Below are positions 8,639-55,771 of a stretch of DNA of 64,000 bases, piece by piece (the first letter of the stretch is position 1; every line of letters begins with the position of its first letter). The notes below the pieces were generated by a model. It saw only the letters and a program-made list of their open reading frames with translations, searched no databases and was not told the origin of the DNA. The DNA comes from Heterodontus francisci. Its lineage: Eukaryota. The position numbers were made by a program, and so were the translations under genes. Location: the NCBI RefSeq assembly GCF_036365525.1, contig NC_090408.1, positions 30,558,269 through 30,622,268 of the forward strand, read 5' to 3'.

Positions 8639-9665
8639 TACAACAACAACAACTTATATTTATATAGCACCTTTAATGTAATAAAATATCCAAAGTTGGT
8701 TCACAAGAGCATTATAAAACAAAATATGACACCAAGCCACATAAGGAGATATTAGGTCAGATGACCAAAAGCTTTGTCAAAGAGGTCGATTTTAACGAGT
8801 ATCTTAAAGGAGGAAGCTGAGGTAGAGAGGTTTAGGGAGGGTATTTTAGAGCTTGGGGCCTAGGTAACTGAAGGCATGGCCACCAATGGTGGAGCGATTA
8901 AATTGGAGATGCACAAGAGGCCAGAATTAGAGGAGAGCAGATAACTTGGAGGGTTGTGCGGCAGGAGGAGGTTGTAGAGATAGGGTGAGGTGAGGCCATG
9001 GAAAGTTTTGAAAACAAGGATGAGAATTTTGAAATCAAGACGTTGCTTGACTGGGAACCGATGTAGGCCAGCGACCGCAGGGGTGATAGGTAAACGGGAC
9101 TTGGTGTGAGTTAAGACACGGGCAGCAAAGTTTTGGATGGCCTCATGTTTACCGAGGGTAGAATGTAGGAGGCCAGCCTGGACTGTGTAGGAGTAGTTAC
9201 ATCAAGCAGTAACGACGGCATGAATGAGGGCTTCAGCAGCAGATGAGCTGAGACAGGGGCAATGTTGGGCAATGTTACGGGGGTGGAAATAGACAGTCTT
9301 AGTGATGGCGTGAATATGAGGTCGGAAGCTCACCATGGGGTTAAATGTGAAACCGAGGTTGTGAACACGCTGTTTTAAATTCAGACTGTTGCCAGGGAGA
9401 GGGATAGAATTGGTAGCTAGGAAACAGAGTTTGTAGTGGGGACCGAAAACAATGGCTTCAGTCTTCCCAATGTTTAATTGTAGTAAATTTCTGCTCATCC
9501 AGTACTGGATGTTGGATAGGCAGTCTGAGAATTTAGCAGCAGTGGAGGAGTTGAGAGAGATGGTGATGAGGTAGAGCTGGGTGTCATCAGCGTACATGTG
9601 AAAATTAATGCTGTGCTTTTGGATGATGTTGCCAAGGGGCAGCATGTAGATGAGAAATAGGAGCT
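8639..9665 (-). mobile_element. L2 LINE 3' fragment
   Basis: ORF 9202-9681 has [33 protein letters not shown], typical of L2 RT. Tail aaaggtgctatataaatataagttgttgttg. Confidence 0.9.
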
Positions 9666-10209
9666 CCCAGATCTCTTCCACTACTTAATCTGGCTCCCTG
9701 AAGCTTTTTTTTTCTCCCTTTCATTTCATTAACAAAAACTCTTAGCGTTATCTATGAAGCCCAGGTCTGTCTAAGACTTGAATGATGGGCCCATATCTGG
9801 GAGGCTCTTCAAGCATCTCTTGCACGCCTGGAGAGCAGAAAATAAATGTATTCTGATCGGTGATCTTCATCTCATGCCAGTTTTCTAACATTTCTCCACA
9901 TCTGTGCATCAAAGCTTTTCCCGTCTTTACTTTATCAATATTACTGTGGTCACTGCCGCTCTAAAGTTCCCTGTCAAGCTCCAAGTGAGTCATTATCGAT
10001 GAAAGAAGACATTAATGTTACTTGCCTATCCCCTGCAGTCCAAGTGAGAGATACAGCCTGCAGTTTTTAGCCTGTTTATGGTACAAATCCTGCTTCTAGG
10101 ATTTGTTTAGTATTGATGCGTCTAAGCTACAATTTCTCCCCCCCCACCCCCAAAAATAATGCTTCTTCACAATTTGCAGTGCATGCATTTATTGCTGACA
10201 CTAATGATC

Positions 10210-10337: not shown

Positions 10338-10563
10338 CATTACAGGGCAGTCATTTGAACAGAATGGAACTCTGGCAATGTTGGGTGCTGTATACAATGA
10401 GGATGTAAGAATGGAAACGAGGTAATGTCAAAAGACAGAGTAGAGAACTGCTGGGGTGAAAGGATCATCAGTCAATAGCCTGAGATTCAAATGGGAGGTA
10501 GCTATAAATTACAAGATGGAGGAATGATTCTGAAATATATTTTAAAAATGAAGATAATCATAT

Positions 10564-11112
10564 GTGTCAGCTGTGGCTCATTTGATGGCATGCTCGCCTC
10601 TAAGTCACAAGGGCCTGGTTTCCAAGTCCCACTTCAGGACTTGAGCACAATAATCAAGGCTGACACTCCAGTGCAGTACTGAGGGAGCACTGTACAGTCT
10701 TTCAGATGAGACATTGAGGCCCTGTCTGTGCTGTCAGGTGGATGTAAAAGATCCCTTGGCACTATTTGGAGAGCGGGGGTTAACCCTGGTGCCCTGGCCT
10801 ATATTAACCTTCCCATCAGCATTACAAAAACAGGTTATCTGGTCATTGTCACATTGCTGTTTGTGGGAGCTTGCTGTGTGCAAATTGGCTGCCATGCTTC
10901 CTACATTAATAACAGAAGAAATAGGAGCAGGAGTAGGCCATTCGGCCCCTCGAGCCTGCTCCACCATTCAATAAGATCATGGCTGATCTGATCATGGCCT
11001 CAACTCCACTAGAACAGTGACTACATTTCAACAAAGTACTTCATTGGCTGTAAAGCATTTGAAGCTAAAAGTTTCTAAAGTTGTGAAAGGTGCTATGTAA
11101 ATGTGAGTCTTT
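10564..11112 (+). mobile_element. Deu-domain tRNA SINE (SacSINE1/AmnSINE1-like), near full length, interrupted
   Basis: Head gtggctca..caagtcccact, core tctttcagatgagac..gtaaaagatccc..ggcact..ccctgg, tail aaaggtgctatgtaaatg. Homologous to copies at 48.7 and 50.6 kb. Confidence 0.85.
10916..11012 (-). mobile_element. CR1 3'-end fragment nested in the Deu-SINE
   Basis: gaaataggagcaggagtaggccattcggcccctcgagcctg matches the CR1 3' end at 62155. Flanked by an aacag duplication (10911-10915 and 11013-11017). Confidence 0.8.
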
Positions 11113-14152: not shown

Positions 14153-15160
14153 TGGCTCAGAATTTGCAGTTATAATGATGGCGAAACTGTCACCATCATT
14201 ACTCTTTGAAACTGACAACAATTTCTGATGTACGCACATGAACAGTTAAACGCAGAGATCCAGAAGTTGCCGTCACTGATTCCTCACTCTTCCACATGGT
14301 GTACTTTTGAAGTCCTCACAGATGGAAATCAATCAGAAATCACTGATCTGATGTGAACTTCTGCTTTTTACACTATTATTCTGACTGTAAAAACTCTTGA
14401 AAATAATTAAGCCTGTTGAATGAGGTGTAGCTGGGTTTTTAATGGCATACTTTCTTTGGCCTCCTTATCTCGAGAGACAATGGGTAAGCGCCTGGAGGTG
14501 GTCAGTGGTTTGTGGAGCAGCGCCTGGAGTGGCTATAAAGGCCAATTCTAGAGTGACAGGCTCTTCCACAGGTGCTGCAGAGAAATTTGTTTGTTGGGGC
14601 TGTTACACAGTTAGCTCTCCCCTTGCGCCTCTGTCTTTTTTCCTGCCAACTACTAAGTCTCTTCGACTCGCCACACTTTAGCCTACTAAGTGTATAGCAT
14701 ACATAGCATACTAAGTCATAGTTATTGCTGAATAACCTCTTTGGCCCTGAAAAGCTAATTTTGTATTTGTGGAATGTCAAATTTCTGCATTCATTGATAA
14801 ATTCCATAGATTTTTAAAATAATGTTTTCAGATTTTATCATATTTCAGCTTCTACCTTAATCCCAGGTGTATATCCCAATCTTTATTTTGCCTTCTGTAA
14901 AATTATGAATGGATGATAAAACCTGCTTGTTATTTCCTGGTTTGCCGTGAGAATTCTTCAATGTGATAGGCTGCTTAGCCTGCTTGATAATATCGCTGTT
15001 GCTGGAAGCCGCAGATCACCTATAGCTAGTGCCAGAATGAAATTAACATTGGGAAGGGCAAAACTCACATTAAGATACCGCGAGGGATCTTTGTGGGCAG
15101 CTTTCTTCGAGGTCAGCACAGAATGCTGTCACTTTGCCACTGACTGCAAAATTCGGGCCA
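14153..15160. mobile_element. MITE / non-autonomous DNA transposon (PIF/Harbinger-like) with a nested RTE
   Basis: Terminal inverted repeats (TIRs) tggctcagaatttgcagt and actgcaaaattcgggcca. Flanked by tga on both sides (14150-14152, 15161-15163). Confidence 0.75.
14451..14683 (-). mobile_element. RTE-clade LINE 3' fragment (C-terminal C2H2-like motif)
   Basis: Encodes FLCSTCGRACHSRIGLYSHSRRC. About 10 mismatches in ~230 nt versus 45901-46130. Confidence 0.9.
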
Positions 15161-18189: not shown

Positions 18190-19255
18190 CATCCATCTTT
18201 TGCTGAGCATTTTTACCACTTTCTTTCTCAAAATATTTTTAAATTGTTTTTGCTGTTAACGTTGGTATCTTTGCAAGTTTTTTTTTAAATATATTCTGTT
18301 TTTGCACCTCATTACTTTCTTTGTATCCCTTTGCTTTTAACATCTCTCCCAGTCCACTGGATTTCCATTTTTCCTCATATTTGGGTAAGCCTTTTCTATC
18401 TCTTGCCTTGTTTGTTGACCATAGCTGCTTGCCTTCACAAAATACATTGATTTTTAGGGAGATGTACTGTTTTTGTATCATACCAAATACTTCCTACTGT
18501 TTGTAGGTTTACCCATTCAACAGTTCAGCCCAGTTCATTGTGGTCAATTCAATTCTCATGCCTTCAAAGTTTGCCATACTTAAATTTAAAACCTTGGGTT
18601 ATGACTCATCTCACTCCTTCTGAAACCCAATATTAAATTCAATCGTAGTAGGATCACTACTTTTGCAATGTTCCCGTACCATCTGATTGTTAACTAATTC
18701 TGAAATAATTGCCATTACTCAACAGGCACTTGTATTTATATAGCACGTTTAACATAATGAAACGTCCCAAGGCACTTCACAGGAGGGTTATAAAGCAAAA
18801 TTTGACATGGAGCCACATATTAGAACAGGTGACCAAAAACTTCATCAAAGAGGTAGGCTTTAAGGAGTGTTTTAAAGGAGGAAAGAGAGATGGAGGGATT
18901 TAGGGAAGACATTCTAGGGCCTAAGTAACTGAAGGCACTGACACCAACGGGCGTAGCAATTAAAATCAGGATACACAAGAAGCCAGAATTAGAGGGGTAC
19001 GGGTATCTTGGAGGGTTGTGGGGCTGGATGAGATTAGAGAGGGGTGAGGCCATGGAGAGATTTGAAAACCGAATCCAGTATGGCCTGTTCCTTCATTGGT
19101 TCTAAAACATATTGTTCCAAAAACTTTCTGAATTAAATTCTAGCTTCATTGCCTATTCTACTTGAGCTGCTTCTCCCAGTCAATGTGAAAATTAAAGTAC
19201 CCAATATAATCACATTGTTTTTGCTCCATCCTTCCCTGACCTCTCTATTTATATA
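18190..19255 (-). mobile_element. Old CR1 fragment (APE and linker) interrupted by L2
   Basis: Degenerate similarity to CR1 ORF2 (tttgccatacttaaatttaaaacc, gatcactact, ctcccagtcaatgtgaaaattaaagtacccaat) on both sides of the L2. Confidence 0.5.
18720..19070 (-). mobile_element. L2 3' fragment
   Basis: Collinear with 8639-9020. ORF shows SAFSYLGP..LSSFKTLLKAYLF. Confidence 0.85.
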
Positions 19256-22964: not shown

Positions 22965-25795
22965 TTGAATGCAAGGAATGTAGTAAATCCGATGAGCTGA
23001 GGGCACAGATTGACACATGGCAACACGATATCATTGCTATAATGGTAAGTTGGCTTAAAAAGGGGCAAGAATGGCAGCTCAACATCCCTGGATGTAGAGT
23101 TTTCAGGCGGGATAGCGAGGATAAAAAAGGAGGGGGTGTAGCATTATTGGTTAAGGAATTAATAACAGCTGTGAGGAGGGATGATATGCTAAATGAATCA
23201 TCAAATGAGGCCATATGGGTTGAGCTCAGAAATAAAAAAGGGGCAGCCACACTACTAGGAGTGTACTATAGACCCCCAAATAGTGAGAGGGAGATAGAAG
23301 AACAAATATGTAGGCATATTTCTGAGTGCAAAAACAATAGGACAATAATAGTTGGGGATTTCAACTACCCTAATATCAACTGGGATACAAACAGTGTGAA
23401 GGGGACAGAGGGCACAAAATTCTTGAGCTCCATTCAAGAGAACGTTTTTAGCCAGCACGTAACAAGCCCAACGAGAGGAGTGCAATTCTAGATTTAGTCT
23501 TTGGTAATGAAGCTGGGCAAGTGGATGAAGTAGCAGTGGGTGACCATTTTGGAGATAGTGACCATAATACAGTTAGTTTTAGTATAATCATGGAAAAGGA
23601 CAAAGATGAAACAGAAGTAACAGTTCTAAATTGAGGGAAGGCAAATTTTACGAAACTGAGAGGTGATCTGGCGAAAGTGGACTGGATACAGCTACTTGAA
23701 GGAAAATCAGTGGCAAACCAGTGAGAGGCATTCAAAAGCGAGATACTACTGGCACAGTGTAGGCATGTCCCCACAAAGATAAAGGGTGGTACAGCCAAAT
23801 CTAGAGCCCACTGGTTATCTAGAAGCATGCAGAGTAAGTTAAAGCAGAAAAAGAAAGCTTATGACGATCATAAAAAACTTAATACTTTAGAAAGCCTAGA
23901 GGAGTATAGAAAGTGCAGGGGTGAAGTAAAAAAGGAAGTTAGAAAAGCAAAGAGGGGGCATGAAAAATTATTGACATAAAATCAAGGAAAACCCAAAGAT
24001 GTTTTATCAGTACATTAAGAGTAAGAGGATAACTAAGGAAAGGATGGGGCCTATCAGGGATATACAAGGGAACATATGCATGGATGCAGAAGATGTGGGC
24101 AGGGTTCTTAATGTTTTTTGTCTCTGTCTTCGCAAAGGAGAGGGTTGATGCAGACATTGTAGTAAAAGGGGAGGAGTGTGAAATATTAAATATAAAGCAT
24201 AGTGAGACAGAAAGTACGAGAGGGTCTGACATCCTTGAAAGTGGATAAACTGCCAGGGTTCAGATGGATTGCATCCCAGGTTATAAAAGGAAGCCAGGGA
24301 GGAAATAGCGGATGCGCTGAGGATCATCTTCAAATCCTCACTGGATACAGGTGAGGTGCCAGAGGAATGGAGGTCTGCGAACGTTATACCATTGTTTAAA
24401 AAGGGTGTGAGGGATAGGCCAAATAATGATAGGCCGGTCAGTCTGACCCCAGTGGTGGGTAAATTATTAGAAACAATCCTGAGAGGCAGGATAAACTGCC
24501 ACTTAGAAAGGCACAGATTAATCAGGGAAAGTCAGCATTGATTTGTTAAGTCTTACTAACTTGACTGAGTTTTTTGAGGAAGTAACAAGGAAGATTGATG
24601 AGGGTAATGCGATGCATGTGGTCTACATGGATTTTAGTAAGGCATTTGACAAGGTCCCGCAGGGCAGACTGGTTAGAAAAATGAAAGCCCATGGGATACA
24701 GGAGAATGTGGCAGGTTGGATCCAAAATTGGCTCAGTGACAGGAAACAAAGGGTAGTGGTTGACAGATGTTTTTGCGAATGGAAAGCAGTTTCCAGTGGC
24801 GTTCCACAGGGCTCAGTGTTGGGTCCCTTGCTGTTTGTGGTATATATTAATGATTTGGATTTAAGTGTAGGAGGCATGATTGGGAAATTTGCTGATGACA
24901 CAAAAATTGGCCATGTAGTTGATAGTGAAGAGGAAAGCTGTAGACTCCAGAATGATATCAATGTTTTGGTTGAGTGGGTGGAAAAGTGGCAAATGGAATT
25001 CAATCCAGAGAAGTGTGAGGTAATTCATTTGGGGAGGGCAAACAAAGCAAGGGAATATATAATAAATGGGAGGATATTGAGAGGGGTAGAAGAAGTGAGA
25101 GACCTTGGAGTACGTGTCCACAGGTCCCTGTAGGTGACAGGACAGATAGTTAGAGTGGCGAAGAAGGCATATGGAATGCTTTCCTTTATTGGTGGAGGTA
25201 TAGAATTCAAAATAAGGGATGTAAAGCTGGAACTGTATAAAACACTGGTTAGGCCACAGCTGGAGTATTGCGTACAGTTCTAGTCACCACATTACAGGAA
25301 GGACATAATTGCTCTGGAGAGAGTACAGAGGAGATTTACAAGAATGTTGCCAGGGTTTGAAAGTCGCAGCTATGAGGAAAGATTGGATAGACTAGGTTTG
25401 TTTTCCTTAGAACAGAGGAGGCTGAGGGGTGACTTAATTGAGGTGTACAACATTATGAGGAGGCCTAGATAGAGTGGACAGGAAGGACCCGTTTTTCCTA
25501 GCGGAGAGTTCAATTACCAGGGGGCACAGAGTTAAGGTGATTGATAGGAGGATTAGAGGGGACTCACCCAGAGGTTGGTGGGTGTTTGGAATTCACTGCC
25601 AGGAACGCTGGTGGAGGCAGAAAACCCTCAACTCATTTAAAAGGTACCGGGACATGAACCTGATGTGGTGTAACCTACAAGGCTATGGACCAGCTGCAGG
25701 AAGGTGGGATTAGTTTGGGCGGCTAGTTTTTTCGGCCGGTGCAGACACGATGGGCTGAATGGTCTCCTTCTGTGCCATAATTTGTCTATCGTTCT
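22965..25795 (+). mobile_element. CR1 LINE, near-complete but disabled ORF2 (APE endonuclease plus RT)
   Basis: GGGVALLVKE, GVYYRPP, VGDFNYPNINW, SDH, WRSANVIPLFKKG, DFSKAFDKV, SGVPQGSVLGPLLF and KFADDTK. Several stops and frameshifts. CR1 3' UTR present. Confidence 0.96.
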
Positions 25796-26159: not shown

Positions 26160-26777
26160 CAACAACAACTTGCATTTATATAGCATCTTTGTCCCAAAAT
26201 GTCCCAAGGCACTTCATTGGAGCATTATACCAAGCCAGAAAGTACATATTAGGACAGGTGACCAAAAGTATGGCAACAGAGGTCGGTTTTAAGGAGCGTC
26301 TTTACGGAGGAGAGAGAGGTAATAAAGCTGAGAGGTTTAGGGAGGGAATTCCAGAGCTTAGAGCCTAGCAGCTGAAGGCATGGCTGGCAATGGTGGAGTG
26401 ATGAAAATCAGGGATGTACAAGAGTCGAGAATTGGAGGAATGCAGAGATTTTGAAACGTCGTATGGCCATGAAGGGATTTAAAATGGAGGATGATTGCAG
26501 CATTGCTGGACATGGGAATGATTGATGAACTGCACTAGGATACACACAGCAGAGCTATGGATAAGATGAAGTTTATGGAGGGTGCAAGGTGGGACGCCAG
26601 CCAGGAGAGCACTGGAATAGTCATGTCTATCGGTAATAAAGTCATGGATGAGGATTTCAGCAGCAAATGAGCAGAGGTGAGGTGGAGATGGACGATGTTA
26701 CAGAGTTGGAATTAGGCAGTCTTAGTGATGGAGCGAATGGAGTGTCGGAAACTCAGCTCAAAGTGAAATAAGATACC
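26160..26777 (-). mobile_element. L2 3' fragment
   Basis: caacaacaacttgcatttatatagca tail. Collinear, with deletions, with 8639-9350. Confidence 0.85.
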
Positions 26778-27942: not shown

Positions 27943-28099
27943 TTAAACTTCAGTGTGCTTCCAGAACTGCCAAGAGGGTTTGATGGACATGTGCTGATAA
28001 CACTGTTCTTAAGTCTAAATCATGAAGACAGATTGGAACCAGCTACATAGCATCATAACTCCACCTTTCTGTTATAAAAATAATTCTTTAAAACTCACT

Positions 28100-28485
28100 C
28101 TCGGCATTTGTGTGTCACTGTCAAGACTGGTTTCTATTGCCCATTCCTAGTTGCCCTTGAGAAGGTAGTGAGCTGGCTTCTTGAACCACTGCAGTCCGTG
28201 AGGTGAAGGTGCCCTCACGATGAAGGAGGGGGTTCCAGGATTTTGACCCAGCAACAATGAAGGAACAGTGATACATGTGCAAGTCAGGGTGGTGTGAGAC
28301 TTGGAGGGGAATTTTGAGGTGATGGTGTTCCCATGCGCCTGCTGCCCTTGTCCTTAAAGCTGGTGAAGGTCACAGGTTTTAGAGGTGCTACTGGAGAAAC
28401 CTTGGTGAGTTACTGCAATGCATTCTGTGGTAGGAACAACCTGGAGCTGTAGTATGGTGGGGGAGGGGGTGGATGTTTAAGCTAG
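28100..28485 (-). mobile_element. Older 3' fragment of the tRNA-headed LINE family
   Basis: tattgcccattcctagttgcccttgagaagg..ccaggattttgacccagc, collinear with 51830-52200. Confidence 0.8.
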
Positions 28486-29909
28486 TGCAAACAATTTTGT
28501 TCAGTAGGATGGATATTTATTGGAGCCCTTAAATTTTCTCCCCTTCACCCCTGAAGACATGGTTCTCCATGTGCAGCTCAGTGGACAAAATAGCCTCTCT
28601 CCATGATCTAAACATCTATGGTGAAGCCATTTTCTCCTCGTTACCCTCATGAAATCCTGCTGCACTTTAATGAAGGTGAGAGAAAAATGCCAAACTTGCT
28701 GCTGCAGATTTTGCATGAAACAGTGCAGTACTGGATAAAATCAGCAAAACTGTGCCTCAAGTTGTTTTGAGGCCATGGAGCACGAAGACACTGCTCAGGA
28801 ATAAAATCCTGCCCCATAATTATGCCAATTTTGAAACAAAGGAAATGCCCTGATAAACTATTTTTGGCACAATCCCTTTAAGCACTGACACTGGGGAACC
28901 TGATTGTTGTATTGCTTTCCTTACTCAATTATTTTGGTTGGGGCTCATTAGCTTCAAAACTGTTGAATGTGTACATGGCCCTGTTGGGACAATGTCTCTA
29001 CTTAGACAGAGAATTGACCTGCATGTAAGTTATATCATCAATTCACCGATGGAAAAACTGACTTGTGCTATACCTGTTATTGACCTAAGCTCAGACTGCG
29101 GACTCCAGTTCAGCATTTAATTAGCAACTTAAATTGACTAACCAGCTGTTTAAAAAAAGTTGTAATCTAAGAATGTGCTTGGTTTAAAGGTTTTCTCTCC
29201 ATTTTAAATATCTTTTCTCCCTCCTCCCTTTCTCCTCCTTAATGTAGACACCCTGTTCAACAACAAGCCCTGCCGTGTCCCAGTTTTTCAGATCAGCAAT
29301 GAGTAACTGGTGACACAGGCTCTAGTGGCTGAATGGTCCAGCCCTGTTTCTGTGTTCTTGTGTTCCTAACTAAGGGGTTGAATAAGTGTTCTGGTCCAAG
29401 CTCTCTAACAGCATTCTGTGTCCAGCATCTAGGAGATCTTGTCAGTCTTTTCCATGTGGATAGGCAGGTTTACTATGAGCCATCAGGAAGGGAGACACAC
29501 ACAGAATGATTAAAGAGAAAGAAAAAACTAAAGAGAAAACAAGAGATTAGCAAACATGCATGCAGCATATGGATATAATGGAAGAGAAAATTAGTGGAAA
29601 GACCGAAGGGAAGGGAATGATTAAAGGAAAACTGCAAATATAAGACAGAGACCAAAAAAACTCCTGTTCCACTGTAGAAAGACCAAGGCTGCAATCACAC
29701 TGACCAGCACGTGGGTTTTCACCAATGCAGCACAATTTGTTTTGGATATGTGTGTTATTGTAACCGTGCAGCATACTCTATTACACCAACACATTGGGAC
29801 ATCCATTGAAAAATATAAAGCTCGAATCTCAAAAATGATTTACCCATCCTCCCATTGGCCGAGTGCCTACAACACCTTACAGACCACGTAGAACCCATTT
29901 CTATACCCA

Positions 29910-30469: not shown

Positions 30470-31027
30470 CCACAAAATGTGATGCTTTCATTGTAGGTTT
30501 TATGTTCTTTTTAAGAATTGGTTGGCGCATACAGACACCCACCCTACATCACATAAACCAGCTTGTCAGAGGCTCATTAAAAAAGTCTCATGTGCAACCC
30601 TTTTTTTACTGAGAAGGAAACCTGACAAAAAAAAATTATATATAGAACAAATTCTCATCTGTGAAGAGCTACAAAAGAAACCTGTAAAAACTCCCCACTG
30701 GTCCAGGCAAAGTTTAACGGATTTTCAGAGACGCACATGAAGGACAAAATATTTTTCTGCAATGTCAAAAACAGTTATTAGTGGAGGAGGGCCAGACCCT
30801 GGAGTTTTAGCGAGCTGTTGGAGACATTTTACGCAAATGATGTCACTGAATTTAAAAAAATGTTTACTTTGATCAACTATTAAATGCAAAATAGTATTTG
30901 TTTCCCCAGCATTCAAAAAAGGTTTAAATTGTGGGAAGTCAAGGAGGAAATGAAATGGTTAGGGAACACTCACACGTTTGTTCAATCACATGGCATACCA
31001 TTTACCTGGTCTTAGTATAGTGCTTAT

Positions 31028-32054
31028 TATTTTTATTAATTTGGGGGATGTGGGCATCGCTGGCTAGACCAGCATTTATTGCCCATCCCTAATTGCCCTT
31101 GAGAAGTTGGCAGTGAGCTGCCTTCTTGGACCGCTGCAGTCCTCGGGGTGTAGGGACACCCACGGTGCTATTAGGAAGGGAGTTCTAGGATTTTGACCCA
31201 GCGACAGTGAGGGAATGGCGATATGGTTCCAAGTCAGGATGGTGTGTGACTTGGAAGGAAACTTGCAGGTGGTGGTGTTCCGATGCACCTGCTGCCCTTG
31301 TACTTCTAGGTGGTAGAGGTCGTGGGTTTGGAAGGTGCTGTCGAAGAAGCTTTGGTGAGTTGCTGCAGTGCATCTTGTAGATGGTACACACAGCTGCCAC
31401 TGTGTGTCAGTGGTGGAGAGAGTTAATTTTGAAGATGGTGGATGGGGTGCCAATCAAGTGGGCTGCTTTTTCCTGGATGGTGTTGAACTTCATGAGTGTT
31501 GTTGAAGCTGCACCCATCCAGGCAAGTGGAGAGTATTCCATCACACTCCTGACTTGTGCCTTGTGGATGGTGGACAGACAATGGGGAGTCAGGAGGTGAG
31601 TTACTCAACGCAGGATCCCCAGCCTTGACCTGGTCTTGTAGCCACAGTATTTATATGGCTACTCCAGTTCAGTTTCTGGTCAGTGGTGACCCCCAGGATG
31701 TTGATAGTGGGGGATTCAGTGATGGTAATGCCATTGAATGTCAAGGGGTGATGGTTAGATTCTCTGTTGTTTGAGGTGGTCATTGCCCGGCACTTGAGTG
31801 GTGCAAATTTTACTTGCACTTATCAGCCCAAGCCTGGATGTTGTCTAGGTCTTGCTGCATCTGGACACGGACTGCTTCAGTATCTGAGGAGTTGCAAATG
31901 GTGCTGGTCTGACCTTATGATGAAGGGAAGGTCATTGATGAAGCAGCTGAAGATGGTTGGGCCTAGGACACTACCCTGAGGAATTCCTGCAGTGATGTGC
32001 TGGGACTGAGATGATCGACCTCCACCACAATCATCTTCCTTTGCACCAGGTATT
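31028..32054 (-). mobile_element. 3' kb of the tRNA-headed LINE family
   Basis: Collinear with 51800-52850. Includes RT motif GVPQGSVLGPTIFSCFINDL-like and the tail gggcaattagggatgggcaataaatgctgg. Confidence 0.92.
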
Positions 32055-32399
32055 AAGTAATATAAAGGCCAGCAGGGATTGTTGGTGATACTACCTTATG
32101 AATAAGTAACACTTGCATAATGACATTCCTTTGTCCATTCGATTAATGGAGGCGTGACCCATTTATTTTAAATGGATTTGTGCCTGTGTTAAAATAGCAG
32201 AGGAATGTCACACAAAGGCATTATGCATTTTACACTGATAATGCAGTAATTTCCAGTCTGTACTATATCAAATTATAAATGGTGACACTTCAGGTCAGCT
32301 AGTCTAAATTACTGTTCTGAATGTCATGGGAATGACTGCCATGTGTGATTATGTCTCAAATCTGAAGATGAGTCCATTATTCCCAACTAAAAGTCATTT

Positions 32400-35364: not shown

Positions 35365-37837
35365 ATAATAAAAGCAAAATACTGCGGATGCTGGAAATCT
35401 GAAACAAAAACAAGAAATGCTGGAATCACTCAGCAGGTCTGGCAGCATCTGTGGAAAGAGAAGCAGAGTTAACGTTTCGGGTCAGTGACCCTTCTTTGGA
35501 ACTGACAAATATTAGAAAAGTCACAGATTATAAACAAGTGAGGTGGGGGTTGAGCAAGAGATAACAAAGGAGAAGGTGCAGATTGGACCAGGCCACATAG
35601 CTGACCAAAAGGTCACGGAGCAAAGGCAAACAATATGTTAATGGTGTGTTGAAAGACAAAGCATTAGTACAGATTAGGTGTGAATATACTGAATATTGAA
35701 CAGCAACAAGTGCAAACCTGAAGAAAAACAACCTGAAAAAAACAGTGGGTAAGCAAACTGAACAAACTAAGATGAAATGAAATAAATGCAAAAAAAGATT
35801 GTAAAAAATGTAAAAAGGAATGTAAAAAAAAGGAAGAAAAAATAACTAAAAATGACTAAAAATGAAAGTAAAGTGGGGGGCTGTCATGCTCTGAAATTAT
35901 TGAACTCAATGTTCAGTCCGGCAGGCTGTAGTGTGCCTAATCGGTAGATGAGATGCTGTTCCTCGAGCTTGCATTGATGTTCACTGGAACACTGCAGCAA
36001 TCCCAGGACAGAGATGTGAGCATGAGAGCAGGGGGGAGTGTTGAAATGGCAAGCAACCGGAAGCTCAGGGTCCTGCTTGCTGACTGAGCGGAGATGTTCC
36101 GCAAAGTGGTCACCCAGTCTGCGCTTGGTCTCCCCAATGTAGAGGAGACCACACTGTGAGCAGCGAATACAGTATACTACATTGAAAGAAGTACAAGTAA
36201 ATCGCTGCTTCACCTGAAAGGAGTGTTTGGGGCCTGGGATAGTGAGGAGAGAGGAGGTAAATGGGCAGGTATTACACCTCCTGCGATTGCAAGGGAAGGT
36301 GCCCTGGGACGGGGACGAGGTGGTGGGGGTAATGGAGGAGTGGACCAGGGTGTCGCGGAGGGAACGATCCCTTCAGAATGCTGACAGGGGAAGGGAGGGG
36401 AAGATGCGACTGGTAGTGGCATCACGCTGGAGGTGGCGAAAATGGCAGAGGATGATCCTTTGGATATGGAGGCTGGTGGGATGAAAAGTGAGGACAAGGG
36501 GAACACGGTTGAGGGCCCTGTCAACCACAGTGGGGGGAAATCCTCGGTTGAGGAAAAAGGAGGTCATATCAGAAGCACCGTCATGGAAGGTAGCATCATC
36601 AGAGCAGCTGCGTCGGAGACGGAGAAACTGGGAGAATGGAATGGAGTCCTTACAGGAGGTAGGGTGTGAAGAAGTGTAGTCGAGGTAGCTGTGGGAGTCA
36701 GTGGGCTTATAATGGATATTGGTAGACAACCTATCCCCAGAGATGGAGACAGAGAAGTCGAGGAAGGGAAGGGAAGTGTCAGAGATGGACCATGTAAAGG
36801 TGAGAGAAGGGTGGAAATTGGAAGCAAAGTTGATAAAGTTTTCTAGTTCGGGGCGGGAGCAGGAAATGGCACCGATACAGTCATCAATGTACCGGAAAAA
36901 GAGTTGGGGGAGGGGGCCTGAGTAGGACTGGAACAAAGAATGCTCGACATATCCCACAAAAAGACAGGCATAACTAGGACCCATGCGGGTACCCATAGCG
37001 ACACCTTTTACTTGAAGGAAATGCATGGAGTTGAAGGAGAAGTTGTTCAATGTGAGAACAAGTTCAGCCAGGCGGAGGAGGGTGTTGGTGGATGGGGACT
37101 GGTTGGGCCTCTGTTCCAGGAAGAAGCGGAGAGCCATCAAACCATCCTGGTGGGGGATGGAGGTGTAGAGCGATTGGACGTCCATAGTGAAGAGGAGGCG
37201 GTTGGGACCAGGAAACTGGAAATTGTCAAAATGACGTAGGGCGTCAGAAGAGTGACGGATGTAGGTGGGAAGAGACTGGACCAGTGGAGAAAAGATAGAG
37301 TCTAGATAGGAAGAAATAAGTTCAGTGGGGCAGGAGCAGGCTGACACAATGGGTCTGCCGGGACAGTCCCGTTTGTGGATTTTGGGAAGGAGGTAGAAGC
37401 GGGTTGTCCGGGGTTGCGGGACTATGAGGTTGGAAGCTGTAGAGGGAAGATCTCCAGAGGAGATGAGGTCAGTGACAGTCCTTTGGACGGTGGCTTGATG
37501 TTCGGTGGTGGGGTCATGGTCCAGAGGGAGGTAGGAAGAGGTGTCTGTGAGTTGCCGTTGAGCTTCTGCAAGGTAGAGGTCGGTACGCCATACAACAACA
37601 GCACCACCCTTGTCTGCAGGTTTGATGACCATGTCGGGGTTAGACCTGAGAGAACGGAGTGCCTCAAGTTCAGAGGGGGACAGGTTAGAGTGAGTGAGGG
37701 GGGCAGAGAAATTGAGACGACCAATGTCTCGCCGACAGTTTTCAATGAAGAGATCAAGAGCGGGTAAGAGGCCAGGGGGAGGGGTCCAGGTAGAGGGAGA
37801 ATGCTGGAGGCGGGTGAATGGGTCTGCTGGGAGAATG
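35365..37837 (-). mobile_element. Penelope-like element, Neptune type, 5'-truncated, with TSD
   Basis: RT plus GIY-YIG ORF and a terminal repeat with a hammerhead-like motif (35365-35515). Perfect 14-bp duplication ctgttaacaccatt at 35351-35364 and 37838-37851. Confidence 0.95.
35884..37830 (-). pseudogene. Penelope RT / GIY-YIG endonuclease ORF with one in-frame stop and an internal deletion
   Basis: KPADKG, FYLLPKIHK, GRPIVS, MDVQSLYTSI, GVAMG, RYIDD, linker FPCNRRRCNTC and VVYCIRCSQCGLLYIGET. ORFs 36373-37632 and 35884-36213 share a frame across a TGA at 36373-36375. Confidence 0.93.
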
Positions 37838-37889
37838 CTGTTAACACCATTTCCTGGTTTAAAATCCTTTGAGGGTGACTATATTGTGT

Positions 37890-38694: not shown

Positions 38695-39352
38695 GTTTTG
38701 AACTGTGCCCCCTAGTTTTAGTCTCTCCCACAATGGGATACATCCTTTCAATATCCACCCTGTCAAGTCCCCTCAGGATCTTATATGTTTCAATAAGATC
38801 ACCTCTCATCCTTCTGAACTCCAATGAATACAACATTTCTTAAGATAACCCTCTCATTGCAGGAATCAGTCAAGTGAACCTTCTCTGAACTGCTACCAAT
38901 GCAATTATATCCTTTCTTAAGTAAGGAGGCCAAAACTGTACACAATTCTCTAAATGTGGTCTCACCAATGCCCTGTACAACTGTAGTAAAATATCTCTAG
39001 AATCAGAGAATCATAGAAAGTTTACATACAGAAAAAGGCCACTTGGCCCATCATGTCTGTACCGACTAAAAATGATCTAGTCTAATCCCATTTACCAGCA
39101 TTTGGTCCGTAGCCCTGCAGATTACAGCACTTGAGGTGCATATCCAGACTCCTTTTGAATGAGTTGAGGGTTTCTGCCTCAACTACCCTTTCAGGCAATG
39201 AGTTCCAGACTCCCATCACCCTCTGGGGTTCAATTCCCCTTACAATAAACAACAACATTACATTTGTCTTCTTAATCACTTGCATACTAACTTTTTATGT
39301 TCCGTGTACTAGGACACCCAGATGCCTCTGCAGCTCAGAGTTCTGCAATCCT
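38695..39352 (-). mobile_element. CR1 fragment containing a nested CR1 3' end of another subfamily (38998-39227)
   Basis: LYSLEFRRMRGDLIETYKI..KTRGH. A new tail (gaatcagagaatcatagaa) starts at ~38998 and the host resumes at ~39228. Confidence 0.85.
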
Positions 39353-44677: not shown

Positions 44678-45356
44678 ATCCCTACCTGGGGGCTACCATT
44701 GACCAGAAACTGAACTGGAGTAGCCATATAAATACCGTGGCTACAAGAGCCGGTCGGAGGCTAGGAATCCTGCGGCGAGTAACTCATCTCCTGACTCCCC
44801 AAAGCCTGTTCACCATCTACAAGGCACAAGTCAGAAGTGTGATGGGATACTCTCCACTTGCCTGGATGGGTGCAGCTCCAACAACACTCAAGAAGCTTGA
44901 CACCATCCAGGACAAAAGCAGCCTGCTTGATTAGCACGCCATCCACCACCTTCAACATTCACTCGCTCCACCACCGACGCACAATGGCAGCAATGTGTAC
45001 CATCTACAAGATGCACAGCAGCAACTCACCAAGGCTCCTTAGACAGAACCTTCCAAACCCACAACCTCTACCACCTAGAAGGACAAAGGCAGCAGATGCA
45101 TGGGAGCACCACCACTGCAAGTTCCCGTCCAAGCCTCCATCATCCTGACTTGAAACTATGTCGCCGTTCCTTCACTGTCGCTGGGTCAAAATCCTGGAAC
45201 TCTCTTCCCAACAGCACTGTGGGTGTACCTATTCCACATGGACTGCAGCGGTTCAAGTAGGCAGCTCACCACCACCTTCTCAAGGGCAATTAGGGATGGG
45301 CAATAAATGCTGGCCTGGACAGTGACACTCACATCCCATGAACGAATTTTTAAAAA
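44678..45356 (+). mobile_element. 3' fragment of the tRNA-headed LINE family
   Basis: LGATIDQKLNWSSHI..IYKAQVRSVMGY. Tail aagggcaattagggatgggcaataaatgctgg. Confidence 0.92.
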
Positions 45357-45583: not shown

Positions 45584-46135
45584 TCGCAGCCTCCAGAGAA
45601 TACTTGGCATCAGGTGGCAGGACCGTATCTCCAACACAGAAGTCCTCGAGGTGGCCAACATCCCCAGCTTATACACACTACTGAGTCAGTGGCGCTTGAG
45701 ATGGCTTGGCCATGTGAGCCGCATGGAAGATGGCAGGATCCCCAAAGACACATTGTACAGCGAGCTCGCCACTGGTATCAGGCCCACCGGCCGTCCATGT
45801 CTCCGCTTTACAGACGTCTGCAAACGCGACATGAAGTCCTGTGACATTGATCACAAGTCATGGGAGTCAGTTGCCAGCGTTCGCCAGAGCTGGCGGGCAG
45901 CCTAAAGTGTGGCGAGTCGAAGAGACTTAGCAGTTGGCAGGAAAAAAGACAAAGGCGCAAGGAGAGAGCCAACTGTGTAACAGCCCCGACAAACAAATTT
46001 TTCTGCAGCACCTGTGGAAGAGCCTGTCACTCTCGAATTGGCCTTTATAGCCACTCCAGGCGCTGCTCCACACACCACTGACCACCTCCAGGCGCTTACC
46101 CATTGTCTCTCAAGACAAGGAGGCCAAAGAAGGAT
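45584..46135 (+). mobile_element. RTE-clade LINE 3' fragment
   Basis: LQRILGIRWQDRISNTEVL..RLRWLGHVSRMEDGRIPKDTLYSEL..GRP and CSTCGRACHSRIGLYSH. Confidence 0.93.
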
Positions 46136-48649: not shown

Positions 48650-49108
48650 ACACTTGCATTTATTTGGCACTTTTCACAACCACTGGGCATCTCAAAGTGC
48701 TTTACAGCCAAGGAAATATTTTTGACGTGTAGTCACTGTGGTCATGTAAGAAACACAGCAACCAATTTTACACATAGCAAACTCTCACGAACAGCAATGT
48801 GATAATGACAGATAATCTGTTTTTGTGATGTTGGTTGAGGGATAAATATTGGCCAGGACACCAGGGAGAACCCCCCCTGCTCTTCTTTGAAACATTGCCA
48901 AAGGAACTTTTACATCCCCAGAGCAGGAAGATGGGGACTCGGTTTAACATCTCACCTGAAAGACAGCACCTACGACAGTGCAGCACATCCTCAGTATTGC
49001 ACCGCAGTGTCAACCTTGATAGTTGTGCTCATGCCCTGGAGTGGGTCTTGAGCCCAGAGCCTTGTGACTTAGAGTTGACAGTGCTACTAACTGAGCCACA
49101 GCTGATAC
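48650..49108 (-). mobile_element. Deu-domain SINE, full length
   Basis: Reverse complement of the head, core and tail seen at 10564 and 50574. Confidence 0.9.
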
Positions 49109-49199
49109 GTAATATGTAAGAATAGAACTAAATAAAATTTAATTATTTAAAGAATTGAGGAAGCATCTGCCTATGATTTTGGCTTGGATGGTGTTTGCA

Positions 49200-49833
49200 C
49201 AGGGACTCAACAATTGACTATTAGCTGAGGCATATAATATAAGAGCAGGGAGGTTATGATGGAGCTGTATAAAATGTTTGTTTGGCCACAGCTGGAGTAC
49301 TGTGTACAGTTCTGGGCACCACACTATAGGAAGGATGTGATTGCACTGGAGAGGATGCAGAGGAGATTCACCAGGATGTTGCCTGGGCTGGAGCATTTCA
49401 GCTTTGAAGAGAGACTGGATAGGCTAGGGTTGTTTTCCTTAGAGCAGAGAAGGCTGAGGGGGGACCTGATTGAGGTATGCAAAATTATGAGGGGCATTGA
49501 TAGGATAGAGAGGAAGAAACTTTTTCCCTTAGTGGAGGGGTCAATAACCAGGGGGCATGGATTTAAGGTAAGGGGCAGGAGGTTTAGAGGGGATTTGAGG
49601 AAAATAAATTTCACCCAGAGGGTGGTTGGAATCTGGAACACACTGCCTGAAGGGGTGGTAGAGGCAGGAACCCTCACAACATTTAAGTATTTAGATGAGC
49701 ACTTGAAACACCATAGCATACAAGGCTAAGGGCCAAGTGCTGGAAAATGGGATAAGAATAGATTGGTGCTCGATGGCCGGCACAGACACGATGGGTCGAA
49801 GGGCCTGTTTCTGTGCTGTATAACTGTATGACT
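49200..49833 (+). mobile_element. CR1 3' fragment
   Basis: 157-aa ORF LYK..PQLEYCVQFWAPHYRKD..SLEQRRLRGDLIEV..TRGH..RVVGIWNTLP, plus 3' UTR. Confidence 0.93.
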
Positions 49834-50573: not shown

Positions 50574-51007
50574 TGTCAGCCATGGCTCAGTTAGTAGAAC
50601 TCTTGCCTCTGAGTCAAAGGTTATGGGTTCAAGTCTCACTCCAGGACTTGAGCATTAAAATTAGGGTTGACAATCCAGTGCAGAACTGAGGGAATGCTAC
50701 ACTGTTGGAGGTGCTGTCTCTTGGATGAGCTGTTAAAATGAGGCCCTGTCTACCCTCTCAGATAGATGTAAAAGATCCTGTGGCACTCCTTTGAAGATGT
50801 GCAGGGGAGTACGTAATCCCTGATGTCCTGGCCAATAGTTGTCAGTGAATATCACAGAACAAAATGTGGTCATTATCACATTGCTGTTTGTGGGAGCTTG
50901 CTGTGTGCGAATTGGCTGCTGTGTTTCCAACATTACAACAGTGACTGTACTTAAAGAGTGGTTTGGGATGTCCAGCGGTCGTGAAAAAATTCAAGTTTTT
51001 TTTCTTT
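50574..51007 (+). mobile_element. Deu-domain SINE, near full length
   Basis: A-box-like tggctcagttag, B-box-like ggttcaagtct, then Deu core and tail. Confidence 0.9.
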
Positions 51008-51792
51008 CTCCGACGGATGAACTGTATTGGGTTGCAATAATAAAGATTGGTTTTGTTTTCTGAACAAGTTGCAGCTAGTGATAAGTCTTGACTCGCTGAA
51101 TAAGTTTGCATGTGACTGTTTTCTGTACCTGGCTACTTGAGTGGTTGAGAATATGTCTTACTCTTGTGGGAAGTAGACTACAGATCTGCACTGTAAACAC
51201 CGAGTGGATTATGGTTCCTCCTGAAAGAATCATCGATTTATATTATTTGAATGCTCAATTTACGTAAGGGGTCAGACTGTACTGATCAACAAGGTAACAG
51301 TCTGCAGATGATCTTGGTGCTTGTGTTATCTTGTAGGTGTTGCAGCCATACGATCGGAATATCATTAAATACAATGAGATTTGCTTCAGTTCATAACCAA
51401 TTTGTCCAATGCTTTTGGGGCTTATTAAATATTAGGAGCAATGTCATTCAGCCAGCCAGCTTATTTGTCTGTGATTTTTGCAGTATGATTGCTGCTGTAA
51501 TCTTCATGGTACATTAGTACCAGCTGCAGAATTGCCAATCAAAAACAGTCCAACACCTTTCTTGTGCTTCAGATACACAGCATGAATGGGGTGGGTGTTG
51601 GTTCTTTGCCCACGTCCCATGACAATTCTTACTGTGAGAGACTGGTGAACAACCAGGAATGGATTTGACTTCAGATTGAAGATGGCAGCTGTGCAAAGCT
51701 TCCGTGATCCTTTCCCCAGCAGGTGACTGTTCCCAGACTGTTGTCAATGCTGCTGTTGAGCTGGCTTTTCAAAGCTGTGTGAGTGGTCCAAG

Positions 51793-54700
51793 TTTTTTTT
51801 TTATTCATTCATGGGAGGTGGGCGTCACTGGCTATGCCAGCATTTATTGCCCATCCCTAATTGCCCTTGAGAAGGCAGTGGTGAGCTGCCCTCTTGAACC
51901 GCTGCAGTCCATGTGAGGTAGGTACACCCACAGTGCTGTTAGGAAGGGAGTTCCAGGATTTTGACCCAGCGACAATGAAGGAACGATGATATAGTTCCAA
52001 GTCAGGATGGCATGTGACTTGGACGGGAACGTGCAGGTGGTGATGTTCACATGCATCTGCTGCTCTTGTCCTTCGAGGTGGTAGAGGTCGCGGGTTTGGA
52101 AGGTGCTGTCTAAGGAGCCTAGGTACATTGCTGCAGTGCATCGTGTAGATAGTACACACTGCAGCCACTGTGCGTCGGTGCTGGAGGGAGTGAATGTGGA
52201 TGGTGTGCCAATCAAGCGGGCTGCTTTTGTCCTGAATGGTGTCGAGCTTCTTGAGTGTTGTTGGAGCTGCACCCATCCAGGCAAGTGGACAGTATCCCAT
52301 CACACTCCTGACTTATGCCTTGTAGATGATGGACAGGCTTTGGGGAGTCAGGAGGTGAGTCACACGCTGCAGGATTCCTAGCCTCTGACCTGCTCTTGTA
52401 GCCATGGTATTTATATGGCTACTCCAGTTCAGTTTCTGGTCAATGGTAGCCCCTAGGATGTTAATAGTGGGGGATTCAGCAATGGTAATGCCATTGAATG
52501 TCAAGGGGAGATGGTTAGATTCTCTGTTGTTTGAGATGGTCATTGCCTGGCACTTGTGTGTTGCAATGTTACTTGCCACTTATCATCTCAAGCCTGGATA
52601 TTGTCCAGGTCTTGCTGCATTTCTACAGGGACTGCTTCAGTATTTGAGGAGTCGCGAATGGTGCTGAGCATTGTGCAATCATCAGCAAATATCCCCACTT
52701 CTGACCTTATGATTGAAGGAAGGTCATTGATGAAGCAGCTGAAGATGGTTGGGCCTAGGACACTACCCTTAGGAACTCCTGCAGTGATGTCCTGGAGCTG
52801 AGATGATTGACCTCCAACAAACACAGCCATCCTCCTTTGTGCTAGGTATGACTGTAACCAGCAGAGAGTTTTCACCCTGATCCCCATTGACAACAGTTTG
52901 CTAGGGCTCCTGGATGCCATACTCGGTCAAATGCTGCCTTGATGTCAAGGGCAGTCACTCTCACCTCATCTCTTGAGTTCAGCTCTTTTGTCCATGTATG
53001 AACCAAGGCTGTAATGAGATCAGGTGCTGAGTGGCCCTGTCGGAACCTAAACTGGGTATCACTGAGCAGGTTATTGCTAAGCAAGTGCTGCTTGATGGCA
53101 CTGTTGATGACACCTTCCATCACATTGCTGATGATTGAAAGGAGACTGATGGGGCGGTAATTGGCCGGGTTGGACTTGTCCTGCTTTTTGTGTACAGCAC
53201 ATACTTGGGCAATTTTCCACATTGCCAGGTAGATGCCAGTGTTGTAGCTATACTGGAACAGCTTGGCTAGGGGCACGGCAAGTTCTGTAGCACAGGTCTT
53301 CAGTATTATTGCCAGAATATTGTAGTATCCAATGCCTTCAGTCGTTTCTTGATATCATGCGGAGTGAATAGAATTGGCTGAAGTTTGGCATCTGTAATGC
53401 TGGGGACTTCAGGAGGAGGCCGAGATGGATCATCAACGTGGCACTTTTGGCTGAAGATTTTTGCAAATGCTTCTGCCTTATCTTTTGCACTGATGTGCTG
53501 GGCTCCCCCATCATCGAGGTTGGGGATATTTGTGGAGCCACCTCCTCCAGTTAGTTGTTTAATAGTCCACCACCATTCACGGCTGGATATGGCAGGACCG
53601 CAGAGCTTTGATCTGATCTGTTGGTTATGGGATCGCTTAGCTCTGTCTATTGCATGCTGCTTATGCAGTTTGGCATGCACGTAGTCCTGGGTTGTAGCTT
53701 CACCAAGTTGACACCTCATTTTGAGGTATGCCTGGTGCTGCTCCTGGCATACCCTCCTGCACTCTTTATTGAGCCAGTATTGGTCTCCTGGCTTGATGGT
53801 ATTGGTAGAGTGGGAGATATGCCGGGCCATGAGGTTACAGATTGTGGTTGAGTACAATTTTGCTGCTACTGATGGCCCACAGCACCTCATGGATGCCCAG
53901 TTTTGCATTGCTAGATCTGTTCGAAATCTATCCCATTTAGCACGGTGATAGTGCCACACAACACAATGGACGGTATCCTCAATGTGAATGCGGGACTTCG
54001 TCTCCACAAGGACTGTGCGGTGGTCACTCCTACCAATATTGTCATGGACAGAAGCATCTGCGGCAGGCAGATTGGTGAGAACAAGGTCAAGTATGTTTTT
54101 CCCTCTTGTTGTTTCTCTCACCACTTGCCGCAGACCCACTCTAGTAGCTATGTCCTTTAGGACTCGGCCAGCTCAGTCAGTAGTGGTGCTACTGAGCCAC
54201 CCTTGGTGATAGACATTGAAGTCCCCCACCCAGAGTACATTTTGTGCCCTTGCCACCCTCAGTGCTTCCTCCAAGTGGTGTTCAACATAGAGGAGTACTG
54301 ACTCATCAGCTGAGGGAGGGCGGTAGGTGGTAGGAGGGTACCTTGCCCATGTTTGACCTGATGCCATGAGACTTCAGGGGTCCAGAGTCGATGTTGAGGC
54401 CTCCCAGGGCAACTCCCTCCCTACTGCAGACCACTGTCCCGCCACCTCCGCAGGGCTAGTGATTGCAGTGTCTGGGACATTGTCTGTAAGGTATGATTCC
54501 GTGAGTATGACTATGTCAGTCTGTTGCTTGACTAGTCTGTGGGACAGCTCTCCCAACTTTGGCACAAGCCTCCAGATGTTAGTAAGGAGGACTTTGCAGG
54601 GTTGACAGGGCTGGGTTTGCCGTTGTCATTTCCGGTGCCTTGGTCGATGCCGGGTGGTCCGTCCAGTTTCATTCATTTTTATTGACTTCATAGCGGTTAT

Positions 54701-54975
54701 GTACAATTTCAAATGGCTAGGCCATTTCAGAGGGTATGTAAGAGTTAACCACATTGCTGTGGGTCTGGAGTCACATGTAGGCCAGCAGCTTTCCTTCCCT
54801 AAAGGGCATTAGTGAACCAGATGGGTTTTTACAACCATCGACAATGGTTTCATGGCCATCATTAGCCTAGCTTTTAATTCCAGATTTATTAATTAAATTC
54901 AAATTCCACCTTCTGCTGTGGTGGGATTCGAACCCTGGGTCTCTGAGTTACTAGTCCATGATAATACCATTACCC
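51793..54975 (-). mobile_element. Apparently full-length single-ORF LINE (CR1/Jockey group) with a tRNA-derived 5' head
   Basis: ATG 54676 to stop 51857, broken by stops, frameshifts and deletions. APE motifs TNIW, LTESYL, YRPP, GDFNV, LDLV, SDH. RT motifs NYRPISLLS, LDIKAAFDRVWH, GVPKGSVLGP, FADD. Short 3' UTR with an A tail. Confidence 0.92.
54913..54975 (-). promoter_or_regulatory. tRNA-Thr(AGT)-like internal Pol III promoter
   Basis: Minus strand gtaatggtattatcatggaCTAGTAActcagagacccagGGTTCGAATCCcacc: perfect B box (54924-54934) and anticodon loop CT-AGT-AA. A box degenerate. Confidence 0.75.
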
Positions 54976-55771
54976 TGTCCTATTTGCCTTGTCTCGCTGC
55001 AGTAACTCTGCCTCTTCGAAAGTACGGCTGGGATGAGGGAACCAGAAGCTCAAATCGACATCCATCAACTCCATTTCACAATGCTCTAGAGCACTGATAT
55101 CCTTTATCACCATGCATCATCTCTTTATTAATATTGCTTGGATATTTTATTCTGATGGAATAATGAAGCTTTTGCTATGCAAATCTGACCAGAAAAACTC
55201 TTCCAATTATCTTAGACTAGTTGGAAAAGGGAAAATTAGCCTCTTTTTGAAAAAAAAATCACCCCCTCCTCACCCCCCACCAACCCTACTTTGACATTCC
55301 CCTCCATCTTTCAGTGGAATAGCAGCAATTTTCACAAGCACTTGGAGATCAGGCTTTAAAGCTGCTTTCTAGAGTATTCCTTTAAACTGCTTGAAGTCAA
55401 TACTGAACTGTTTATTTACATTGATTGGTCTGCCGAATGTAGTGGTGGTGTTTAATTGTTTGACCACAAATCCAGCCACGCTGTTTTCATCTCTGCATTG
55501 GTGATTGTTATTTACCAGGTTAACAGTTGTCATCGCCTCCACCCTTACCTATTCATGCAATTGGGAGAACCGTTAATTAATCCTCTGCAACTATACACCT
55601 CTAATGTGTTAATTTAAGGTGCTGCTGCCCCTTTCCAATTATTTGGATGATGTTTGTCTACCTGAAGTGCTATGTTCATGTCATAAACAGACTTAAATTA
55701 GGTTGCTTGGATCAATTGGATTATGTTATGGTCAGTTACACTTGCTCTTTTCACCTCTGAATACAATTTAA

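Follow-up and report, generated by a model that had tools for sequence, protein, structure and literature searches.

This report concerns a retrotransposon on the minus strand of a 64,000-nucleotide (nt) stretch of Heterodontus francisci DNA (NC_090408.1, positions 30,558,269 to 30,622,268; hereafter the window). Judged from its sequence, the element at window positions 54975-51793 (-) is a dead copy of the elasmobranch Zenon family, an abundant, 3.29-kb, A-tailed long interspersed element (LINE) with just one open reading frame (ORF), for an APE endonuclease and a reverse transcriptase (RT). [quoted passage not shown] Its central claim is held a little more firmly: it is probably Pol III that transcribes full-length Zenon sources over their entire length, and their translation probably requires neither a cap nor an AUG in frame.

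Zenon itself, which belongs to the CR1 group, has been described from sharks, rays, coelacanth, and hagfish as a family without ORF1 and with a poly-A end (PMC13343379).

A window copy without sense T runs

The original prediction had reported no run of four Ts (T4) on the sense strand of 51793-54975 and more than 15 on the opposite strand, and counting agrees: on the plus strand, AAAA occurs zero times and T4 or longer 18 times. The longest A4-free gap on the plus strand of the window is 51541-55193 (3652 nt), and the second longest, of 1276 nt (30915-32191), spans another Zenon copy. A mononucleotide shuffle of the window copy yields 5.4 sense T4 runs against none observed (P = 0.004), slightly below the 6 to 8 that had been anticipated. 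Sense T4 is also missing from the copy at 31.0 kb (83%) and from that at 44.7 kb (88%), as had been claimed; likewise, the many sense T4 runs seen in CR1 and Penelope ORFs reappear in same-genome consensuses, which carry 7 (CR1), 8 (Penelope), and 6 (L2).

The family and its tRNA-like head

When the 6.0-Gb genome was searched with head and ORF combined, 6812 loci emerged as first-look candidates, of which 40 were scored; the copies examined in every search described here are the top-scoring loci only. All 39 fetched copies align starting in the head region, and 23 contiguous copies together with the window copy were used to build a 3289-nt consensus, in which a head (A box at 11-21, B box at 75-85) is followed by a body to about position 321, an A-rich linker, a 975-codon frame, a short 3' untranslated region (UTR), and an A tail. 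Non-CpG divergence from this consensus is 2.1-4.5% in the copies and 5.1% in the window copy.

Because that sample was selected on the head, the head test was repeated with ORF-only queries. With APE DNA as the query, 20/29 copies begin at the head and 9/29 are cut within the head or the ORF; with APE protein, 18/29 begin at the head and 11/29 are cut at positions 51-375, the 600 nt upstream of these 11 having only three short unrelated matches in common. Combined, 38 of the 58 ORF-selected copies reach the head and the remainder are 5'-cut, which extends the attachment of the head well beyond the window copy. The predicted absence of ORF1 also stands: only some 300 nt separate the start of the head from the ORF, no copy examined has an ORF1, and neither an upstream ORF nor an alternative common 5' UTR was found in the 58 ORF-selected copies.

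Compared with the A- and B-box consensus, the family head matches at both boxes, which lie 53 nt apart, and tRNA-like arms are predicted. Alignment to genomic tRNA-Thr(TGT) and tRNA-Lys(TTT), the two genes compared, gives z of about 6 for both. The tRNA-Thr(AGT)-like head with a perfect B box that had been proposed for the window copy survives in part: the B box is intact (54934-54924), the A box is damaged, some 12-14 nt being missing at the 5' end of this copy, and the Thr label is plausible. The companion statement, that no SINE tail or poly-A separates head and ORF, is weakened by the A-rich linker (about 54684-54673), which could be the remnant of a SINE tail.

Across species, seven elasmobranch Zenon consensuses from five species (CarCar, RhiTyp, ScyCan, SquAca, and HypSab; 3.24-3.31 kb for 5/7, the others 2.9 and 3.1 kb; PMC13343379) agree by eye, over their first ~400 nt, with the present family in head, body, and beginning of the ORF. 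A match to the A box is present in 7/7 and to the B box in 6/7, the stingray being one base short, and the hairpin between the boxes diverges (by eye). Hagfish and coelacanth Zenons, also compared by eye, have a different start without the head and carry T4 or longer runs within their first 400 nt. We infer that, before sharks and rays separated, a Zenon without ORF1 had its 5' end exchanged for a tRNA-SINE head. In an unrooted RT tree of 141 of 200 sequences, built without named Zenon elements, the RT of the present family lies among homologs of 930-1000 aa (support 0.987), apart from CR1 of the same genome. An A- and B-box head was found in 0/80 related loci from the genome collection, many of them 5'-cut and only 24-39% identical, and a search for DNA of close relatives gave one short locus in metagenomes and none in viral contigs.

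Avoidance of T runs and terminator-like motifs

The absence of T4 from the family consensus has P = 0.006 under synonymous redrawing and P = 0.013 under base shuffling, and a wider loss of T runs accompanies it. Within the ORF, TTT occurs 4 times against 12.8 in codon-shuffled sequences, a ratio of 0.31; the same ratio is 0.78-1.20 for all 82 control ORFs, which comprise CR1, L2, and Penelope consensuses and one RTE copy of the same genome (a single copy because a DNA search for its family had no match) together with 78 of 80 invertebrate-type relatives with a long frame. At synonymous sites, T:C is 0:22 where T would make TTT across codons and 202:278 elsewhere (P = 9e-6), with no comparable context effect for A runs or C runs. 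In L051, a single copy that is intact, the count is 1:21, which shows that the bias does not stem from building a consensus.

Terminator-like motifs of the types given in PMC3141230 (T4, T3VT, TVT3, and T3V2T2) number 0 in the ORF versus 6.9 under a codon shuffle (P = 0.004) and 5.7 under a dinucleotide shuffle (0/300 as low), and CR1, L2, Penelope, and RTE of the same genome show no such depletion. The whole element has 3 of these motifs in sense versus 45 in antisense. Decayed copies regain T4 at 0.23 per kb, and flanks have 6.5 per kb. As regards the T4 depletion that had been predicted relative to codon-shuffled and other-family controls, a zero T4 count is weak by itself, and it is the wider T-run loss that survives codon and dinucleotide controls and is absent in other LINEs. 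The signature consistent with Pol III read-through is, at the level of sequence, strong; selection for read-through, as earlier suggested, is supported, and Pol III transcription itself we infer.

Avoidance of splice acceptors was considered as a cause of the T-run loss and rejected on the grounds that pyrimidine tracts are not depleted (8 vs 4.6). TT is depleted in general (odds 0.69) and TTA is never used. The Phe content of the ORF, 1.8%, is the lowest in a comparison with 120 homologs, and since near relatives have 2.1-2.4%, it is not counted as specific.

Some neighboring observations concern T runs in relatives and within the family. Locus L222:34-2892 holds an intact 953-codon Zenon-like ORF with an in-frame Met and only 33 nt of upstream sequence. 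Three invertebrate-type CR1-group copies, all 5'-cut (L298:5001-7034, L273:4857-6938, and L294:568-1854), have sense T4 counts of 1 vs 8.6, 4 vs 11.7, and 0 vs 5.2 expected, respectively, with TTT near normal; the terminator count of L298 fits the dinucleotide expectation. At family positions 1387-1388, two adjacent common variants occur together in 10/12 copies; the first alone would create TTT, and the pair does not.

Coding capacity and the start of translation

The window copy has a broken APE+RT frame in which the domains are still recognized by translation and Pfam. The head-bearing copy L051 retains 941 open codons with PF03372, PF14529, and PF00078. Among 24 head-bearing copies, non-CpG variants common to at least 4 are 27 synonymous to 17 non-synonymous, compared with 542:1209 for private variants (P = 5e-5), a pattern that points to selection on the protein in head-bearing source lineages. 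Variants in the head are weakly associated with those in the ORF (Mantel P = 0.027).

How such a protein would be started is less easily seen. The main frame of the consensus runs through 975 stop-free codons without an in-frame AUG before APE. The ATG at 54676, which the original prediction took for the start codon, is a private mutation of the window copy; an in-frame ATG within 30 codons before APE occurs in 3/48 copies (the window copy, one other, and one that is frameshifted). A family-wide ATG (54672) does lie just past the A-rich linker, in a different frame, and opens an overlapping frame of 46 codons; the published stingray consensus has an out-of-frame ATG at the same offset (by eye). 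Inspection of the out-of-frame leader by eye revealed no canonical slippery heptamer. The Arg-rich leader of the main frame resembles the basic N-termini of several homologs, again by eye.

Short derivatives and the 3' end

In 8 (7 distinct) of 29 loci selected on the head, the 3' tail follows the head with nothing between, and the head/tail junctions of derivatives fall at 321/3204, 321/3222-3225, 335/3155, 346/3152, and 354/3173. Older head-plus-tail derivatives (74-88% identity) were met by chance in control loci, and similar joints appear in sequencing runs from other organisms. Because the junctions vary and the heads track the LINE's own, the sequences suggest that such derivatives arise repeatedly by internal deletion of Zenon. 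They are short and non-coding, as SINE2 elements are defined to be; the full 3.29-kb element with its 975-codon frame is not.

A terminator built in before the A tail is not clearly supported: two or more Ts precede 15/34 tails versus 123/324 other A runs (internal control, 0/28), and T4 or longer precedes 6/34 tails versus 25/324 other A runs, the consensus having one T. Many Zenon 3' ends do have 2-6 Ts before the A run, not clearly above the A-run background. A target-site duplication was looked for at the window copy and none was found; across the family, a crude search for consistent duplications flagged 5/25 copies, of which about 2 are plausible. At L041:3-2276, an RTE-like element with a 758-aa open frame interrupts a Zenon copy.

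Weighing Pol III transcription against its alternatives

If Pol III does transcribe Zenon, TFIIIC would contact the head at its A and B boxes; the polymerase would begin at the head, pass through the 3.3 kb and the A tail, and end at the next T run of the flanking DNA, in the manner of Alu-type SINEs. Ribosomes would start on this RNA internally or at a non-AUG codon, or would reach the ORF through a -1 shift after the conserved AUG that lies out of frame. The resulting APE-RT protein would then recognize the stem-loop at the 3' end, and target-primed reverse transcription would insert the RNA. SINEs that retain promoter and tail would arise ready-made through internal deletion. Zenon sequence is present in runs from seven organisms and in one metatranscriptome. 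In four runs examined as contigs, coverage spans the element and peaks at the head and the 3' end; strand, start, and polymerase are not visible in contigs.

A number of results weigh against this reading. Neither ARAGORN nor Rfam calls a tRNA in the head, no ribozyme or internal ribosome entry site (IRES) was called either, and net covariation is absent from the predicted structure of the head. Within the 5' UTR, a T3V2T2-type site lies just past the head, at family position 112, and a weak T3CT/TAT3 site lies inside the head at 57-59, so that Pol III read-through would have to be leaky. Taken by itself, the zero T4 count does not reach significance when set against own-usage codon shuffles (P = 0.08) and likewise when set against a first-order Markov model (P = 0.15), and TTT over the whole element is 8 versus 12.3 under the latter (P = 0.14). 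L222, the closest invertebrate relative with DNA, has a TTT ratio of 0.82, a context P = 7e-4, and 2.2% Phe, and its mild avoidance with low Phe means that part of the bias may be a trait of the clade; the milder context avoidance that L222 and L298 share (P ~7e-4) is gone for both under the dinucleotide control. Some of the common variants occupy former CpG sites and do not fit a tree cleanly, by which the synonymous excess can be inflated. Contig depth rises toward the 3' end, as it would for truncated copies in host RNA or DNA. Decay amounts to 2-5% in every copy seen, and the family may therefore be inactive in H. francisci; nor does the reading account for how translation of the ORF would begin.

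One alternative is a split of labor, with Pol III making the full-length template RNA and the protein coming from capped Pol II read-through of copies under host promoters; Zenon would then be replicated like a giant SINE belonging to its own family, its Pol III RNA untranslated. This would give a single account of the head, the terminator avoidance, and the uncapped-RNA problem, and the element is abundant, with 3' bias, in putative RNA runs. Still, we consider it unlikely: purifying selection along head-bearing lineages is easier to understand if the RNA that is copied is the RNA that is translated, and even a capped transcript would be without an in-frame AUG. Just as improbable, in our estimate, is an ordinary Pol II LINE whose SINE-derived head is carried along as a passenger or has become a Pol II promoter, and whose T runs were lost through sensing of U-rich RNA, nuclear retention, or inherited composition. 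LINEs are described as Pol II units (PMC5786205, PMC10886601), and the general TT depletion, the unused TTA, the mild avoidance in L222, and the possible terminator just past the head are all compatible with such an origin. It is harder to reconcile with A- and B-box matches kept across sharks and rays while neighboring sequence changes, with pyrimidine tracts that are not depleted, or with a depletion that exceeds what dinucleotide composition predicts, that affects T and the sense strand specifically, and that four other families of the same genome do not show.

Far less probable than either is a non-autonomous chimera, in which a single fusion joined a SINE to a LINE fragment, the product then being carried in trans by another element with the ORF as inert cargo. 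The missing in-frame AUG and a linker that may be a SINE tail remnant would fit; against them stand the 975-codon open consensus frame with intact motifs and the 941-aa open copy, the synonymous bias of common variants, persistence in five species, and the failure to find a head-less parent with another 5' end among the 58 ORF-selected copies.

Published Zenon elements and other systems

BovB has taken up SINE pieces at its 5' end, and a Pol III claim was once made for L1 and later dropped. The division of LINEs to Pol II and SINEs to Pol III is stated in PMC5786205 and PMC10886601, the former adding that SINEs cannot encode protein; PMC3747384, PMC7245038, PMC4016481, PMC11481361, and PMC5499810 keep that division or treat other SINEs. 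A literature search, with Repbase, Dfam, and SINEBase outside its reach, yielded neither a coding LINE driven by Pol III nor any reference to the Zenon head. A prior description had been raised as a possibility, and the family itself is indeed already published as elasmobranch Zenon, with no description of its 5' head found: the main text of PMC13343379 mentions neither tRNA, polymerase III, nor a promoter, and the portion of its supplement examined does not mention tRNA. In those parts of that paper, head, terminator avoidance, and missing AUG are undescribed features of a known family.

Among known systems, tRNA-derived SINE2 elements (HE1/HER1, SacSINE1, and CmiSINEs; PMC3747384, PMC5499810) also have an A/B-box head, a non-coding body, and a LINE-type tail; unlike them, as compared by description only, the window family has a full APE-RT ORF under apparent selection. 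In Lepidoptera, Zenon and its derivative Persaeus (PMC6740152) likewise pair a single-ORF 3.3-kb element with repeated 5'+3' deletion derivatives, but Persaeus is described without tRNA homology or a Pol III promoter, whereas the shark derivatives inherit a Pol III-type promoter and so look like true SINEs. R2 (PMC3414825) is also a single-ORF LINE with no ordinary Pol II mRNA, for which an upstream stop and IRES-type initiation have been proposed; it is cut by a ribozyme from an rRNA co-transcript and inserts site-specifically, whereas Zenon has an internal tRNA-type promoter, dispersed insertions, and no Rfam ribozyme. Cassandra, Helenus, and Ajax (PMC10886601) are retrotransposons that acquired 5S or tRNA Pol III promoter sequences, but they are non-autonomous long terminal repeat elements without protein, and Zenon is a LINE with an APE-RT frame.

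Features of the window

Features of the Zenon element at 54975-51793 and of further Zenon copies, in window coordinates
Feature	Position	Strand	Remarks
tRNA-like head	54914..54975	-	family positions 1-95; 5' end short by ~12-14 nt, 20-nt internal hairpin missing
A box remnant, family consensus TGGCGTAGTGG (positions 11-21)	54967..54975	-	partly lost in window copy
B box GGTTCGAATCC	54924..54934	-	intact
Non-coding body, family 96-321	54705..54913	-	common to short head+tail derivatives; opens with an AT-rich stretch; one T3V2T2-type site, family position 112
A-rich linker	~54673..54684	-	length differs between species; contains private in-frame ATG 54676
Conserved out-of-frame ATG (54672), 46-codon frame overlapping main ORF start	54532..54672 (end approximate)	-	
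Single APE+RT frame	51857..54718	-	several stops, frameshifts, and deletions in window copy
APE endonuclease domain (PF14529/PF03372)	54020..54592	-	
Reverse transcriptase domain (PF00078)	52540..53220	-	FADD motif at 52689
3' tail, family 3222-3289, predicted stem-loop	51803..51870	-	retained in short derivatives
Short poly-A tail	51793..51802	-	
5'-truncated Zenon copy, 83%	31027..32053	-	sense T4 = 0
5'-truncated Zenon copy, 88%	44685..45347	+	sense T4 = 0
Old Zenon 3' fragment, 72-77%	28083..28487	-	one T4 close to its 3' end

A search for an older subfamily with 28083-28487 as the query brought back the same Zenon family. Other repeats accompany these copies. A Penelope-like element at 35887-37878 (-) has RT and GIY-YIG domains, both below the Pfam cut-off; its family is young, the 40 best of 743 candidates being 98-100% identical, and served as a control. 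At 9100-9700 (-) lies an old family, which we take to be L2-like, with 16502 candidates at about 83%; galeomorph sharks are said to be without full-length L2s (PMC13343379). Conventional CR1 fragments occur at 24522-25775 (11449 candidates; used as a control), 49219-49816, 296-1186, and 39028-39227, dispersed short repeats at 8644-9015, 18720-19069, and 26160-26446 and at 10561-10906, 48744-49111, and 50574-50935, and an inverted repeat pair of 95% identity at 14452-14684 and 45899-46131. In a prokaryotic genome collection, 542/602 pattern matches encode LINE-like proteins (L221-L300), apparently through host contamination in metagenome-assembled genomes.

Implications

Should the Pol III reading prove wrong, what remains is a re-annotated 5' end of a known LINE and an unexplained codon-level bias. 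Should it prove right, Zenon would provide a natural, translated Pol III RNA of 3.3 kb, breaking in a vertebrate the split between coding LINEs made by Pol II and non-coding SINEs made by Pol III. The family would then serve as a model for translation that needs neither a cap nor an AUG, and would show how new SINEs can arise in one step.

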